A stretch of DNA of 22,503 nucleotides from a virus (IMGVR_UViG_2698536485_000016:1-22503), one strand, 5' to 3'; numbered from the stretch's first letter, positions 14,096 through 21,155 are shown. The notes: generated from the letters alone by a model not told the origin. Translations and numbers: made by a program.

Positions 14096-15391
14096 ATGGC
14101 TACTTGGCAAGGAACAAACGGCGGATTGTTGGCTGGTATCGGCGGCGTCAACTCAAACGCTCCGAGCGTAAATGACATCGGCAATACGCTTCAGCTTATC
14201 AGGCAGAACAATGATATTGAGCGTTCAGGCGCTAACAATGTTGGGCTGACTGCTTTGCAAGGCCTTTCAGGTATTGCAGGGGTGTTTCAGCAGGAAAAGC
14301 AGGCTCAGCGGCAGAAAGAATTTCAGCAGGCGTACGCTAATGCTTATGCGTCTGGTGATCGCGGTGCTTTGCGTCAGTTGGCTACTCAATATCCAGACCA
14401 GATTGAATCCGTTCGTAAAGGCATGGGATTCATTGATGAAGACCAGCGTAATTCTATCGGCACCTTAGCGGCTGGTGCACGCCTTGCGTCATCGTCTCCA
14501 GAAGCAATGCAATCATGGCTGCAAAACAACGCCAAGGAACTGACTCGCGTCGGTGTTGACCCTAACAGCGTTGCTCAGATGTATCAGCAGAACCCTTCAG
14601 GATTTGGTGAGTTTGTTGATCACCTTGGAATGACCGCGCTTGGTCCGATTGATTACTTCAATGTTCAGGACAAGATGGCTGGTCGTGAGATTGACCGAGG
14701 CAGGCTGGCAGAGACAATCCGCAGCAATCAGGCCGGAGAAGCACTAACAGCTCGAGGTCAGGACATCCAGATACGTGGACAGAACATCAGCGCACAGAAT
14801 GCTGCTCTTTCCCGCGAAATACAAAGAGCAGAATTACAAGAAAAGGCTCTGGACAGACAGATAGCCAGAGAAAGCAATCAGTTAAAGCTTGAAGAGCTAA
14901 AACAGAAACAGGCAGATGTTAGGCAAAAGGCTGACATAGCCCGCGCTGACAGGCAGGCCGCCGCTCAGGGTGCAGTTGATACGTTCAGCACCGCGCTTGA
15001 TTCTCTCAACGAGATAGAGCAAAGCCCCGGCCTTTCAAAAGCAGTAGGAATTCGCTCAGCGTTTCCGACAGTTCCTGGCTCTGATGCGGCTAACTTTGAA
15101 GCAAGGCTCGACACCTTTAAAGCTCAAACATTCCTTCCTATGGTGCAGTCCCTTAAGGGGATGGGTGCTCTTTCAGATGCTGAGGGTAAAAAATTATCCG
15201 ATGCGGTTGGTGCCCTAAGCCCCAAAATGAGTGAAAAGGCTTTTCGTGACTCTATCGGAAAGATTAGAAATCAGCTTGAAAGCAAGTTGAGCACTGTTAA
15301 AAAACAGTTTGATTATCAGGAGCCGGTTCAGAATATGCCAGGGCAACAATCTACTACTGGCAGTAACTTTTCTTCACTATGGGGTGATTAA
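14096..15391 (+). CDS. Ejection (DNA-transfer) protein, P22 gp20-like
   Basis: 431-aa ORF, second of three consecutive internal virion protein genes; Gln-rich with coiled-coil-like stretch. Confidence 0.7.
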   Translation: MATWQGTNGGLLAGIGGVNSNAPSVNDIGNTLQLIRQNNDIERSGANNVGLTALQGLSGIAGVFQQEKQAQRQKEFQQAYANAYASGDRGALRQLATQYPDQIESVRKGMGFIDEDQRNSIGTLAAGARLASSSPEAMQSWLQNNAKELTRVGVDPNSVAQMYQQNPSGFGEFVDHLGMTALGPIDYFNVQDKMAGREIDRGRLAETIRSNQAGEALTARGQDIQIRGQNISAQNAALSREIQRAELQEKALDRQIARESNQLKLEELKQKQADVRQKADIARADRQAAAQGAVDTFSTALDSLNEIEQSPGLSKAVGIRSAFPTVPGSDAANFEARLDTFKAQTFLPMVQSLKGMGALSDAEGKKLSDAVGALSPKMSEKAFRDSIGKIRNQLESKLSTVKKQFDYQEPVQNMPGQQSTTGSNFSSLWGD

Positions 15392-17388
15392 TGGCTAAAG
15401 CATGGAAAGATGTTATCGCCTCTCCACAGTATCAGGCGTTAGCACCAGAACAAAAAGCGCAGGCTCAGGAGCAATACTTCAATGAAGTCGTGGCCCCGCA
15501 AGCCGGAGAAAATGCAGAGCAGGCTAAGCAAGCTTTCTATGCTGCCTATCCATTGCCATCTGTGCAGCAAGTGGAGACACAGCAACCAGTTGCACAGCAA
15601 CAACCACAGCAAAGTGGATTTATGTCTGATCTTGGCGAAGCAGTAAAAGAGACTGGTCGCGGACTGGTGCAGGCTGGCGTGAACGTGGCAAACATACCTG
15701 CATCAGTTGCCGATGCTGTAACAAGCGCGGCGGCTTGGGCTGGCGGTAAACTCGGCATTGGCGATGGTACATATCAACCAGCGCCACGAGTAACAACGCA
15801 GGGATTAGAGCAGGACTTTGGCCTTCGGCAAGGTGCGCTGACTCCACAAACGACAGAGGGAAGGGTATTTGCTGAAGCATTGCCTTACCTCACACCTGCT
15901 GGCGTTGAGAGAGCGGCGGTACAGGCACCAACACTTGCTGGTCGAATTGCTCAGGGGGCAACTCGCCTTCTAGCAGAAAACGCAGTTGGATCACTTGCTG
16001 CAAATAGTGCGAAAGATGATGCGGAAGCACTCGCCACCGATTTAGGCGTTGGTGTACTTGCTGGCGGTGCTATTAACGCTGCTGGACGTGGATTAGGTGC
16101 TGCTTATCGTGGCGTTCGTGGTGCTATCACGCCAGAAGCGCAGCAGGCTATCAGATTTGCAGAGCGTGAAGGAGTTCCTCTGCACACCACAGACCTGTTA
16201 CAACCCACTTCCCGCGTCGGAAAAATGGCGCAGACTACAGCAGAAAATATCCCTCTGGCTGGCACAAGCGGAATGAGAGCAACGCAACAGGAAGCGAGAA
16301 GCCAGTTGGTGCAGAGATTTGCTGATAAATTTGGTGAGTATGATCCAGCGGTTGTTATTGACAGCCTTAAAGCGAAAACATCAGGAATTCGTCGTGCTGC
16401 CGGTAATCGACTGGAGCAGGTTCAGAATGCTATGGCTGGAGTAAACATTCAACCTGCGCGAGCAATTCAGCAGATTGATACAGAAATATCTAACCTGCAG
16501 AAGCTTGGTAAGGTTGCTGATAACGAGACTATTTCAAAACTTCAGTCATATCGTGATGAGCTTGTTCGCAATGCTGGTCCTGATGGTCCGGTCAATCTGG
16601 ATTTGAAGCAATTAAGCGATCTGCGCAGCCAGTTCAGAATGGACGTGAAGGGTGAGCGACCAGTGTTACCAAACCGTTCCGATGCTGCCATTCAGCGAGT
16701 TTACAAGGCGATGACCGACGATATCAATGGTGCCATTGGTCAGAATCTTGGCAATGATACTCTTCGTAAATATCAGCAGGCCAATGCCGTCTACGCTGAC
16801 GAAGCGGCGAAACTAAAGAATACCAGGCTGAAGAATGTTCTCATGAAAGGCGACCTGACGCCGGAAGTTGTCAACAACATGCTATTCAGCAAGAACAAAT
16901 CGGAAATTAAGACTCTGTATAACTCAGTTGGTCGTGTTGGCAGGGCGCAAATGCGCAATGGCATCATTGGAAAGGCGATGGAGAAATCAGGTGGTTCCCC
17001 TGACCAGTTCCTTCGGCAACTTAACATCCTGCAAAACCAGACTGGCATCACATTTAAAGGTCAGGAAGCCGCTTATCTGAAAGGATTGAAAAACTACCTG
17101 CAATCCACGCAACAGGCTGCAAAAGCAGCAGTAACAACACCAACAGGGCAGCAAACCATCCCGTTCATTATCGGATATGGGACGGCAATGAACCCGGCGA
17201 CAACTGGCGCAGCGGTAAGCTACGGACTTCTTACTCGCGCCTATGAGAGCGAGCCATTCAGAAATGCAATGCTCCGAATGGCAAACACCCCACGCGGATC
17301 AACAGCGTTTGAGAAAGCCATGCAGCAGGCGCAAAAGGCCATTAACGCCATTACTCAGGGGGCTAAGTCTGATGCGTTGTCAGAATAG
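15391..17388 (+). CDS. Ejection (DNA-transfer) protein, P22 gp16-like
   Basis: 665-aa ORF, third ejection-protein gene, start overlapping the upstream stop (TAATG); Gln-rich N-terminal region. Confidence 0.7.
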   Translation: MAKAWKDVIASPQYQALAPEQKAQAQEQYFNEVVAPQAGENAEQAKQAFYAAYPLPSVQQVETQQPVAQQQPQQSGFMSDLGEAVKETGRGLVQAGVNVANIPASVADAVTSAAAWAGGKLGIGDGTYQPAPRVTTQGLEQDFGLRQGALTPQTTEGRVFAEALPYLTPAGVERAAVQAPTLAGRIAQGATRLLAENAVGSLAANSAKDDAEALATDLGVGVLAGGAINAAGRGLGAAYRGVRGAITPEAQQAIRFAEREGVPLHTTDLLQPTSRVGKMAQTTAENIPLAGTSGMRATQQEARSQLVQRFADKFGEYDPAVVIDSLKAKTSGIRRAAGNRLEQVQNAMAGVNIQPARAIQQIDTEISNLQKLGKVADNETISKLQSYRDELVRNAGPDGPVNLDLKQLSDLRSQFRMDVKGERPVLPNRSDAAIQRVYKAMTDDINGAIGQNLGNDTLRKYQQANAVYADEAAKLKNTRLKNVLMKGDLTPEVVNNMLFSKNKSEIKTLYNSVGRVGRAQMRNGIIGKAMEKSGGSPDQFLRQLNILQNQTGITFKGQEAAYLKGLKNYLQSTQQAAKAAVTTPTGQQTIPFIIGYGTAMNPATTGAAVSYGLLTRAYESEPFRNAMLRMANTPRGSTAFEKAMQQAQKAINAITQGAKSDALSE

Positions 17389-17477
17389 CTTCGCAAACAC
17401 CAGGAACGTGCAAAAACCAAATATGTAGAACGCAATATTCAGCATATCTCTGTGCATAAATCCTCCGTAACGGATGG

Positions 17478-17738
17478 TTATCTGCTGTCTTTTTTATATA
17501 GCTTCTTGAGCGTATCAAAGACAATTTTCTTAACCATATCAGATTGTTGTTCTGCCATACGCTCTGCATCGTCAATGTAAACTGATGCAGAGCTTTGTTT
17601 ATCCAATGATTCCTCAATCGCTGCAATTATCTCTGAGTTCAGCGACCTGTTATTCATCTTCGCACGCTGCTTAATTTTCGCGTGGAGTTCATGCGGAAGT
17701 CTCAAGTGAAACTGCGCCTCGTCGTATTTGCTGTACAT
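17478..17738 (-). CDS. mnt: Mnt-like repressor (ribbon-helix-helix, Arc/MetJ superfamily)
   Basis: Translation (FHLRLPHELHAKIKQRAKMNNRSLNSEII...DAERMAEQQSDMVKKIVFDTLKKLYKK) aligns along its length with P22 Mnt as I remember it. ATG at 17738 chosen (SD GGTGAGG upstream); an upstream ATG at 17771 is possible. Confidence 0.8.
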   Translation of the reverse strand: MYSKYDEAQFHLRLPHELHAKIKQRAKMNNRSLNSEIIAAIEESLDKQSSASVYIDDAERMAEQQSDMVKKIVFDTLKKLYKKDSR

Positions 17739-17869
17739 CCTTGATGCCTCACCAGTTGGGTGGAATGGCATCGTAACCTACTGGATAAATACTCAATAAT
17801 ACCATTTTGGTATGCAATCACATCATGGTTGCATCATATCATTCGTCTGGAGCAATGAAATGTCAGATA

Positions 17870-18370
17870 TCACCTACTCAACAGATGGTCAGCAACCATG
17901 TTTGCTGCCTTATAAGCTATAGCAGCTTCATCAATGGTGTTGAATCTCCCAAGGGTTATGTTTTTACCTGAGACATTTATCTGAGCTTGCCATTGATTTC
18001 TGGCTTGACAGAAAGTTACCCCCTTGATCCCAGCATTGCTATTTCGAGGTCCGACATTTAATGCATTTACGACTCTGCTGACATCCCTAAGGTTTGAGAT
18101 TGCGTTATTTCTTCTGTTTCTATCAATGTGGTCAATCTCTTGTTTGGGCCATTCGCCATATACATACAGCCAGGCAAGTCTATGTGCAAAATATCTTACG
18201 CCATCAATATTAATTGCGTTATATCCATAAGAAATTGTGCCAGCAACTTTCCCAACAGCACCTCTGGCGCTTAATTTCTTTTTCCAAGTGAAAATTCCTG
18301 TTTCTTTATTGTAATCGAGAACCTCCATAAGGCGCTCCCGAGTTACTACCTCGTGACGTCTCTTACTCAT
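17870..18370 (-). CDS. HNH endonuclease with C-terminal AP2-type DNA-binding domain (homing-endonuclease-like)
   Basis: HNH_3-like motif ([38 protein letters not shown]) followed by an AP2-like segment (GIKGVTF...WQAQI...[22 protein letters not shown]). ATG at 18370 with strong SD (GGAG, 6-nt spacer) chosen over the TTG start at 18412 in the ORF track. Confidence 0.85.
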
Positions 18371-18392
18371 TATTTTCTCCGGAATGTTTATT

Positions 18393-20060
18393 ATGCCAGA
18401 ACAATTATACAACGTTGTTGTTTCACAACCAAGTCAGTTATTTACTTTAGCTCGCTCGTTTAAAGCAAATGCCAATGGCAAAATTTATATCGGAAAAATT
18501 GACACTGATCCGGTAAATCCTGAAAACCAGATCCAGGTTTATGTGGAGAATGAAGACGGCTCTCACGTTCCTGTTTCGCAACCAATCATCATTAACGCTG
18601 CTGGTTACCCTGTATATAACGGACAGATTGCCAAGTTTGTAACCGTGCAAGGCCATTCTATGGCTGTTTATGATGCGTACGGCGCGCAGCAGTTTTATTT
18701 TCCGAATGTACTGAAGTACGACCCGGATCAGCTTGAGCAGCGTCTTGCATCATCAATAGGTTCTTCCATGGTTGGCATTACCGATGGAAGGACAGTGCAT
18801 GATTTTATATCTGTTGATGACTATCAGAGAATTGGTGATATCCGTGGTTACGGGGCGACAAATGAAAACGTAAACCCTGTCAACATTGCCGTTGCCACAG
18901 GTGAGGCCAATGGTCTACTGAAGGTGCCTAATGGAGTATGGAGCGGTAATTTTGAGTTAAAAAATAAAACTAGCATAACTGGTGAATCCATAACATCAAC
19001 AGTTGTTAACGTTCCTATAAACACGATCGGAATAAAGCCTGAGGGCTCTGACGTTAGAGGGATTACTATATCAAACATGAATCTCCAAGTTAACGGATCT
19101 GTTGCTGGCGGTCCTCCTGTTGGTAGCGGGGTCGGAATAGACATGTCTTTTTGCGGAAAGGCAGTTAACTGTGAGTTTAACAACCTTTATCTCGATTTCT
19201 TTGATATTGGTTACAACGCTGGATATGCTGATTTTTCAAATATTTATAACAATATGAGGTGCAATAACAACCGAATCGGGATTAACCTATCCAGTAACGG
19301 AACAATTATTCAAAACGTGTTCAATGGGTGTTATGTTGCAAACTGGACGGCTTATGCCGTGAAAGTTTCTGGCGCTAGCAACCAGATATTCAACGCGCTT
19401 AACATGGGGCATAACGGATCCGCCAATGCTTATTTCCTGCAGATAGATACGAACTCAAGAGGAATCATATTTAATCAACCTAACTTCGAAATGGACGTTG
19501 CAAACGGGAAAATTACAGCAGGAGGCCAGGCTATCGTGGTCGCCTCTAGTTCTGAGGTTACATTTAACTCCCCGACATTCAACAGGGTTAACGCTGCAGG
19601 GGCAAATGCCTACCTGTTCCGGGTTAGGGGTAACGCTGTAGTACGTATAAACGACCCTCAAATCTACAACGACGATGGCACAATAGGTCACCTAATTATC
19701 AGTGATGAAGCTGTTGTTTATCTCAATGATCCAAATCGAATATTCACAGTAATTACTATCCAAGGTAATGGGAGGCTAATACGTGTTGACGAGAAGATAT
19801 CAAACTCCCCTAACTATACAAACATTCTTACTTTAAAATCTGGAGACATAATTAACTTTGGATTCTATGCAAGATATGCAATGGCGGTTCCAGATTTTCA
19901 CTCCAATACTATGCCATCACCATTCAAGTACGCAGTGAACTTTGACACTTACCATAGCAGTGGAACTGCCATTGCTCGAGTGTATGATACAACTACAGGA
20001 AATGGAGTATCAAACATCAATGTTACATGTTTCGTACAGGCGTGGAGAGAGGATAGATAA
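18393..20060 (+). CDS. Tailspike protein: conserved P22-type head-binding N-domain plus divergent parallel beta-helix receptor-binding domain
   Basis: N-terminal ~115 aa ([53 protein letters not shown]...) match the P22/Sf6 tailspike particle-binding domain; the remainder is Asn/Gly/Val/Ile-rich repeats typical of a beta-helix. Start could be 18384 or 18393. Confidence 0.85.
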
Positions 20061-20090
20061 AAATAGGGCGGTCTCCCCGCCCTATTTTTA
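20061..20090. terminator. Bidirectional intrinsic terminator between the convergent tailspike and acyltransferase genes
   Basis: Perfect 9-bp stem atagggcgg / ccgccctat with a 5-nt loop, flanked by AAAA on the left and TTTTT on the right. Confidence 0.7.
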
Positions 20091-21155
20091 TACTGTAACT
20101 AAATTGTCTTCATTTCTATTGGTTTTTCTTTTTAATTTAAGAAAATGTATTTCAAAAAGATAGTATGACGCAGTTGATACTATATATGCGATAGCAAACC
20201 CACATGCTATTATCACAGCATTATTGTTTACTCCAAACAAGGAGGCCATTTTGTTTGCAATTGAAAAACACAGCAAATGCCACATATACAAACCATAACT
20301 TATCTTTCCTGTAAATGTTAATGGCTTTAATGATAATGCTTTTGTTATTATTTGTTTTTTCCCTAGCACACTCCACTTGTAAATGAAAAAAATTGCAGAT
20401 GAAAAAATCATCCCAAACGCTGTAAACATATACCAGCATTTCCCAGCCCAATCTACAGGGTTCCAAAAAGCATTAAGACCAACAGAATTTATTCCATTAA
20501 GAACCAGCCCAACACCTGCTATAAAAGTTAAAAATCCTGATTCATATGCGTACTTCTCATCTTTTATCTTTGAAAACAGAGCGCCAAGAACTAACATGTC
20601 AATGCAACTGATAAGAGTTACATTTACAATGTATGGGTTTCCATCAGTGATTTGAAATATAAAATATCTTGATATACTTGATGTTATTATTAGTATAATA
20701 AAAATCAGATTCATATTCTTTTTGTTTATGAAAAATATGAATAGAGGCCAAAGCCAGTAAAATTGTTCTTCCACTGCAAGAGACCAGGTGTGCCCCAAAA
20801 TTCCAGGTGTTGTAACATTTATTCCTATATAATAGTTTTGTAGATAAGTTATAAACCACAAATAACCATCCGTTGGTTTCCCAGTTGCAATTAGAAGAAT
20901 AAAGTTAACAAGTAGGTAAGCATAAAATAACGGGAATATTCTAAGCGATCTATTTATAAGAAATCGTTTAATATAGTTACTAAAACCAGAGTCTTTATCC
21001 TCGATAAGGATTGAGGTAATTAAGAAACCAGATAAGCAAAAGAACAGCGGAACTCCAGACCAACCAAGAGAAAATCCTGAAACTTTGGCATGAAAAAGCA
21101 TTACAATGAGCACCGCAATACCTCTCACACCATCTAAAGATTGTATATGTTTCAT
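20088..21155 (-). CDS. Integral-membrane acyltransferase family 3 protein (O-antigen acetylase-like, probable lysogenic conversion gene)
   Basis: 355-aa polytopic membrane protein; N-terminal motif LDGVRGIAVLIVMLFH and multiple hydrophobic segments typical of the family; AT-rich; located between tailspike and integrase as in serotype-converting phages. Confidence 0.85.
   Translation of the reverse strand: MKHIQSLDGVRGIAVLIVMLFHAKVSGFSLGWSGVPLFFCLSGFLITSILIEDKDSGFSNYIKRFLINRSLRIFPLFYAYLLVNFILLIATGKPTDGYLWFITYLQNYYIGINVTTPGILGHTWSLAVEEQFYWLWPLFIFFINKKNMNLIFIILIITSSISRYFIFQITDGNPYIVNVTLISCIDMLVLGALFSKIKDEKYAYESGFLTFIAGVGLVLNGINSVGLNAFWNPVDWAGKCWYMFTAFGMIFSSAIFFIYKWSVLGKKQIITKALSLKPLTFTGKISYGLYMWHLLCFSIANKMASLFGVNNNAVIIACGFAIAYIVSTASYYLFEIHFLKLKRKTNRNEDNLVTV

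Follow-up and report, generated by a model that had tools for sequence, protein, structure and literature searches.

Free-standing homing endonuclease genes (HEGs) of T-even phages, such as segG and mobE, carry their own expression signals, adjoin the gene that they cut and co-convert flanking markers as they spread, and the HEG-plus alleles are protected by sequence differences. These HEGs have other nuclease and DNA-binding architectures than the gene described here, reside in lytic phages and are normally intergenic, whereas the present gene lies inside the first codons of an open reading frame (ORF). In Aeromonas phage Aeh1, a free-standing HEG does occur in coding sequence, where mobE splits nrdA ("genes in pieces") and both halves are translated and assemble; here, in contrast, a vestige of 5 codons makes up the upstream piece, and the interrupted gene, which encodes the tailspike, is rescued by a new start codon. 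We characterized this arrangement in a viral stretch of 22,503 nucleotides (IMGVR_UViG_2698536485_000016:1-22503, hereafter the window), which represents the right end of a P22-like (Lederbergvirus-type) prophage. The inserted gene resembles the HNH-AP2 homing endonuclease family (PHROG 99; Magnani et al. 2004, as cited in PMC10448857), a family with a divergent relative in the "IPA-HNH" genes of ICP1, in combining an N-terminal HNH with a C-terminal AP2 domain and in being a small free-standing phage gene beside a conserved essential gene. It differs in its temperate P22-like prophage host, in having the tailspike initiation region as its apparent target, and in being nested between a ghost and a regenerated start of that target gene. 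In other phages, different HEGs are interchangeable at one locus, and nuclease genes are found at boundaries of genetic exchange (PMC10448857). We consider it reasonably likely that the gene is a free-standing HEG that targets the tailspike initiation region of P22-like phages and spreads by break repair and co-conversion. In kind, this is an ordinary selfish element, with an unusual insertion architecture and a well-defined location. Searches of the literature on homing endonucleases, tailspikes and P22-like phages returned nothing on this site, and its position, the ghost and regenerated-start architecture, and its conservation across Enterobacterales appear to be undescribed in the literature searched.

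The insertion comprises and adjoins the following features:

17870-18370, minus strand: HNH-AP2 endonuclease gene, 166 amino acids (aa)
17875-18410: inserted cassette of 536 bp, containing the body of the HNH gene, the spacer of 22 bp, and a new ATG for the tailspike with five codons after it
17849-17874, plus strand: ghost tailspike initiation region, with a Shine-Dalgarno (SD) sequence GGAG (17849-17852), ATG 17860 and codons 1-5 (MSDIT)
17860-17922, plus strand: vestigial 20-codon ORF following the ghost ATG
18371-18392: divergent spacer of 22 bp containing CTCCGGAA, which offers the HNH gene GGAG (minus strand) and the tailspike a weak GGA (plus strand)
18393-20060, plus strand: tailspike gene (Pfam Head_binding, E = 3.5e-64)
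18393-18731, plus strand: head-binding domain of the tailspike, followed by the strain-specific receptor-binding part

Relatives that lack the HNH gene delimit the insertion, as the initial annotation had expected of such a comparison. In Sf101 and IME10, the tailspike opens GGAGCAATGAA-ATG TCA GAT ATC ACC GCA AAT GTT..., encoding MSDITANVVVS (empty-site sequence ...GGAGCAATGAAATGTCAGATATCACCGCAAATGTTGTGGTAAGCATGCC...), and homology to the window stops at 17874. About 200 HNH-less complete Escherichia coli genomes with the mnt-tailspike gene order also match up to exactly 17874, and about 465 E. coli genomes with the ant-tailspike order match the left flank of phage Kapi1, another carrier, up to the same nucleotide (the native sequence being that of VE-F5). 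On the right side, homology to an HNH-less tailspike allele in genome GF43 (type B, see below) restarts at AAC 18411. Together, the left homology end and the right restart place the insert at 17875-18410. In every context, the tailspike is interrupted after codon 5, and the alignments with IME10 and Sf101 show that the ghost region does not differ from the functional tailspike start of relatives without HNH. The HNH frame extends 5 nt into this ghost, ending at a TGA stop (17872-17870, complement). The vestigial ORF, part of an ORF at 17812-17922, runs antisense to the HNH 3' end, and no evidence of function was found for it.

The cassette supplies a new tailspike start at ATG 18393 (MPEQLY), with the same six-residue length before NVVVS as the canonical MTDITA or MSDITA. 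ATG codons at 18384 and 18393 lie 13 and 22 bp, respectively, from the HNH start, spacings that were given in the initial annotation and are borne out by the ORFs. We take 18393 as the conserved start because it is the sole ATG in the Salmonella, Citrobacter, and Mixta arrangements and gives the canonical six residues before NVVVS; the HNH and tailspike genes thus do share a 22-bp divergent initiation region, as had been proposed. The regenerated start evidently works, since Kapi1, an infectious phage that depends on O-antigen (PMC8787464), has this arrangement too. The Kapi1 gene is labelled only "HNH endonuclease" in GenBank, and the Kapi1 paper (PMC8787464) does not mention it. For the HNH gene, the minus-strand ORF spans 17870-18412, and its best start is ATG 18370 (501 nt), with GGAG 6 nt upstream (18380-18377, minus strand). 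PGAP places the start in RefSeq loci at an internal Met equivalent to 18328 (459 bp). We favour 18370 because of the SD sequence before it and because orthologues keep residues 6-14 (HEVVTRERL). For annotation, the tailspike should accordingly start at 18393 rather than at the ghost ATG, and the HNH gene at 18370 rather than at the internal Met chosen by PGAP.

Other forms of insertion fit this anatomy poorly. No terminal inverted repeats or target duplication were found at the cassette, apart from a 7-nt ACCTACT repeat, and a transposon-like insertion was rejected on these grounds. The heptamer occurs at the junction (17872-17878) and 96 bp upstream (17776-17782, in the mnt-tailspike control region), probably by chance. 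An intron- or intein-encoded HEG was also rejected, given that an Rfam intron search returned no match at E <= 1 and that the gene lies on the strand opposite to the tailspike.

A different origin had been put forward in the initial annotation, namely that a homing endonuclease invaded or replaced the immunity region immI at the slot where P22 carries arc-ant. The neighbourhood is indeed that of P22 immI (mnt / arc-ant) upstream of gene 9, and in the window the HNH gene sits between the tailspike and mnt, its left neighbour outside the insert:

17478-17738, minus strand: mnt, an Arc/Mnt-family repressor gene

This assignment is based on Pfam Repressor_Mnt and Arc matches, and PGAP calls the start at the equivalent position in VE-T9; the ORF is extendable to ATG 17771. 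At 17478-17859, the window has mnt alone, without arc and ant. Nonetheless, HNH-less relatives with mnt directly beside the tailspike are common: Sf101, IME10 and the roughly 200 E. coli prophages have neither arc-ant nor HNH, and in them the divergent control region of mnt abuts the tailspike directly. Conversely, arc, ant and HNH occur together in Kapi1 and most E. coli carriers (Kapi1 and at least five E. coli genomes), so the two are not mutually exclusive, and HNH occurs regardless of the presence of arc-ant or of mnt. The element therefore did not replace arc-ant, and HNH is not part of immI. Of the earlier proposal, an insertion with sharp boundaries stands, but it lies in the tailspike ORF rather than in the arc-ant slot, at codon 5 in every context. 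We rejected arc-ant replacement on this presence/absence matrix and regard it as highly improbable. Annotation of the region in the HNH-less phages is itself sparse or looks erroneous: the Mnt homologue of Sf101 (locus L003, NC_027398, 2509-2802) is labelled "partition protein ATPase" or "chromosome segregation ATPase," and IME10 has almost no annotation around mnt.

To describe its distribution, we surveyed 5,426 complete E. coli genomes and 2.9 million IMG/VR contigs. The cassette was present at >=99% identity in 15 of the genomes and was found in 20 of the contigs; the MPEQLY start occurred in exactly those 20 contigs and no others, and hence never without HNH. Empty sites in E. coli number roughly 650-700, compared with 15 carriers of this nuclease and 15 of a second one described below, giving an occupancy of about 4% (30 of roughly 700; a rough estimate). 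Close relatives thus carry the gene only sporadically, and its junction is precise and recurs. Its left neighbour also varies: mnt in the window and VE-T9; arc-ant in Kapi1/MP1, A39, Combat2C1, FDAARGOS_1256, and GB089; a different immI in AR_0118; gene 16 directly in GF66.2; and a rearranged remnant in 30COLEC. Tailspikes downstream come in at least seven lengths (roughly 555-824 aa). Across ten loci, mean pairwise identity was 99%-100% at 17933-18480, with outer flanks diverging on both sides. To the right, it fell to about 95% up to 18630 and 91%-88% up to 18731, and homology among the loci stops at about 18732, past the head-binding domain; to the left, it collapsed immediately before 17874. 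The same element therefore occurs in unrelated backgrounds with decaying flank identity, a pattern that general recombination could mimic.

In 15 genomes, EC1515 among them, and in 8 IMG/VR contigs, a second HNH-AP2 gene was found at the identical nucleotide (...ATCACC/TAC..., the slash marking the junction). Its identity to the first is 42% over 92 aa (65 bits), and it is found in the contexts of mnt, ant, and gene 16 and behind either ghost variant. The tailspike at these loci starts normally, with MTDSINA, and 86 bp separate its start from that of the nuclease. At one such locus, the ant context is joined to a ghost of the mnt type, implying that a crossover took place inside TCTGGAGC. Relatives far closer to each nuclease than the other one is occur in unrelated phages (137-139 bits), and independent colonization of one hot spot is therefore the more likely history; divergence in place from a single insertion appears unlikely, judging from bit scores rather than a tree.

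The protein itself, supported by Pfam, an alignment to I-HmuI, a 65-sequence alignment, AlphaFold, and Foldseek, has two parts:

Residues ~60-105: HNH core (D80, H81, N102), from Pfam, the alignments and the model
Residues ~114-165: AP2-like domain, from a sub-threshold Pfam match and AlphaFold/Foldseek

The Pfam HNH_3 match is well above the cut-off (residues 60-103, E = 2e-16, 59.7 bits versus 24.8), as are those of the second nuclease and of an orthologue in Escherichia sp. ESNIH1. AP2, in contrast, stays below its gathering score in three proteins including these (27.6, 23.3 and 30.1 bits versus 33.3; 27.6 for the window protein), although at a consistent position. The AlphaFold model (mean predicted local distance difference test [pLDDT], 87) has strands at 118-121, 126-133, and 136-143 and a helix at 146-165 in its C-terminal half, on which the AP2 domains of TEM1 and AtERF1 superpose at 1.4 A over 45 columns with 31%-39% identity (Foldseek probability 1.00). 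The top PDB match is I-HmuI, the intron-encoded HNH nickase of SPO1 (1U3E), whose nuclease half aligns over 93 columns (probability 1.00, E only 8e-3); Foldseek E-values are modest throughout (8e-3 to 8e-2) despite probabilities of 1.00. The D-H...N...N catalytic positions of I-HmuI are conserved: D80, H81 and N102 pair with its residues 74, 75, and 96, which we take to be the catalytic Asp-His and the metal-binding Asn. Among the 65 homologues, D80 never varies, and conservation of H81 and N102 is at least 90%. Unlike the gene here, I-HmuI lies inside a group I intron, and only its nuclease core is matched, the present protein having an AP2-like DNA-binding part. Both nucleases fall in phrog_99, and the only PADLOC models that they match are "homing endonuclease." Judging from these alignments and the model, the HNH protein looks functional.

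A database protein search recovered a clade of orthologues with 67%-84% identity in Salmonella, Citrobacter, Serratia, Mixta, and another Escherichia species, and was far more informative than a GTDB scan, which found only two loci because it relied on exact peptide words. In every orthologue locus that was opened, HNH is divergent from an adjoining Head_binding tailspike. The two genes are 21-33 bp apart in the four other genera and 22 bp apart in both the window and ESNIH1 (from the conserved ATG). At the HNH 3' end, the orthologue loci also carry a ghost SD sequence, an ATG, and 2-7 tailspike codons, with the HNH stop inside the ghost. The spacer holds a CTCCGGRA-like motif in E. coli, Salmonella, Citrobacter, and Mixta (CCCCGGAA in ESNIH1), while that of Serratia differs. 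The head-to-head arrangement is not a matter of chance, and the association with the tailspike is old.

Comparison with the ESNIH1 orthologue gave a saturated proportion of synonymous differences (pS = 0.79) and a low proportion of nonsynonymous ones (pN = 0.125; pN/pS ~0.16), a pattern shared by the head-binding domain. Between the window and ESNIH1, about 60 nt at the junction (18379-18437) have hardly changed despite this divergence. A dedicated motif scan identified a candidate promoter there:

18404-18432, minus strand: predicted HNH promoter, with -35 TTGGTT (18432-18427), a 17-nt spacer, and -10 TATAAT (18409-18404)

It would lie inside tailspike codons 4-14, with its -10 within codons 4-6. 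Five of seven lineages have a perfect TATAAT at 28-34 nt before the HNH ATG; in Salmonella and Citrobacter this is extended to TGnTATAAT, and in Mixta and Serratia the sequence is TATTAT. At the DNA level, the MPEQLY start of E. coli aligns with MSDSIIP of Salmonella, as ATG YCA GAW (T)CAATTATAC(CA)AAY with a compensated frameshift, which suggests that a DNA element rather than a peptide has been conserved.

These data also bear on whether the gene might be a passive or inactive relic that no longer cuts and rides with the head-binding module by general recombination. The E. coli copies are nearly identical, so that selection within the species is not measurable. However, the catalytic residues are intact, the pN/pS of ~0.16 was obtained at saturated synonymous divergence, and the SD sequence and -10 element are conserved across genera. 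In addition, 27 of the 28 collected copies (22 of them identical) retain the 166-aa frame, the exception being the rearranged copy in 30COLEC. Because of this selection, we consider a passive relic improbable. The 30COLEC copy (locus L016, 3459-3911) has altered last 15 residues and is fused to an ASCH-domain gene, beside a different integrase; the locus looks like a prophage remnant that has retained HNH and the tailspike.

Under the homing interpretation, the enzyme would recognize and nick or cut HNH-less tailspike starts around ...GATATCACC/GCAAATGTTGTGG... when a carrier and a related phage are in the same cell, and repair from the carrier would copy the cassette together with a variable stretch of head-binding-domain sequence. 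We infer that carriers are immune, since their site is split and the neighbouring codons have diverged. HNH would be transcribed leftward from the -10 in tailspike codons 4-6, and rightward late transcription, running antisense across HNH to reach the tailspike, would oppose it.

Several observations weigh against this interpretation. From an efficient HEG, an occupancy above ~4% would be expected. Mosaicism is high in P22-like phages, and homologous recombination in the flanks could move the cassette and mimic an identity island without a nuclease. Strong purifying selection across genera fits a domesticated function equally well, and the predicted HNH promoter was not flagged by a generic consensus scan. 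Finally, recoding of the tailspike for immunity is questionable, since the 5' block that accompanies HNH in carriers is not unique to them and the second nuclease lies beside the common allele. This block is as follows:

18411-18461, plus strand: type-B 5' block of the tailspike, 51 nt, 55%-59% identical to the common type-A allele

In 12 of its 17 codons, the block differs from type A only synonymously. It always accompanies the window-type HNH, and it is also present in one HNH-less genome, GF43 (locus L007, 2481-2600), the only intact HNH-less tailspike found with it, where it is joined to a normal MTDSINA start; the GF43 allele is either a pre-insertion allele or a recombinant that has lost HNH. 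The idea that the block is a recoding that protects the carrier from its own enzyme is weakened accordingly, and its first half is better explained as part of the HNH promoter region. In E. coli MLI104K1 (locus L008, 1788-2547), IS1 abuts a type-B tailspike at the equivalent of 18424, ~14 nt inside the cassette boundary, and may have deleted the HNH cassette and the tailspike start.

The main rival to homing, with which it is compatible and not mutually exclusive, is a domesticated exclusion nuclease (a "moron") that is expressed by the prophage and cuts the tailspike starts of superinfecting P22-like phages, protecting the lysogen or prophage, with gene spread being secondary. The gene has the same direction as mnt, and the prophage region that houses both also carries O-antigen modification and exclusion functions. 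Its predicted -10 promoter would be constitutive, and the strong purifying selection across genera and the restriction of PADLOC matches to the models named above have also been counted in favour of this role. On the other hand, the gene occupies only ~4% of sites and has no defence-system partner genes nearby, and the identity island and multiple backgrounds indicate that the gene itself moves. We judge exclusion as the primary role to be unlikely. A packaging-associated HNH protein working with terminase, like HK97 gp74, is the least probable of the alternatives and was rejected: small phage HNH proteins can have such a role (discussion in PMC10448857), but the gene is ~14 kb away from where the large late-strand ORFs begin, is absent from ~96% of close relatives, including Sf101 and IME10, and encodes an AP2-like DNA-binding domain typical of HEGs.

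A broader possibility, which we put forward only tentatively, is that the two HEGs drive the exchange of tailspike (host-range) modules among P22-like phages and also arm the prophage against superinfecting relatives. In the lysogen, expression of each would start from a -10 in the N-terminal codons of the tailspike, kept at the DNA level in E. coli despite the change from MSDSIIP to MPEQLY, and would be switched off by antisense late transcription. Each enzyme would cut incoming tailspike starts, and repair would swap the junction between head-binding and receptor-binding parts. The tailspike sets which O-antigen a P22-like phage attacks, and the conserved head-binding module is a classic boundary for receptor-binding swaps. 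Two selfish nucleases at this boundary, together with an identity gradient through the module, offer a concrete and testable mechanism for part of the exchange, in agreement with the idea that nuclease genes mark phage exchange boundaries (PMC10448857). The HNH protein is also a candidate for a new site-specific nuclease; its target is predicted to span ~20-40 bp.

In P22, the tailspike is reached by rightward late transcripts that cross immI antisense to mnt. It is plausible by analogy that late transcripts in the window run antisense through both HNH and mnt, as the initial annotation had suggested. A consensus scan of 17300-18700 found no plus-strand promoter, and the 22-bp spacer is too short and cannot hold one. 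In the HNH-less state, where the mnt control region abuts the tailspike, Mnt may regulate a tailspike-directed promoter.

The remaining features of the window are as follows, with the integrase following the acyltransferase-3 gene:

15391-17388, plus strand: injection protein
20088-21155, minus strand: acyltransferase-3 gene, between the tailspike and the integrase

In a Salmonella locus (L058, GCA_006404235.1, 1065-3501), an HNH orthologue near fimbrial genes adjoins a 2.4-kb stretch without a called gene, where the sister locus L059 has a P22-type tailspike; the prophage end may be degraded in L058. The acyltransferase-3 gene of the window has a very low G+C content (~30%-36%) and probably encodes an O-antigen acetylase involved in lysogenic conversion.

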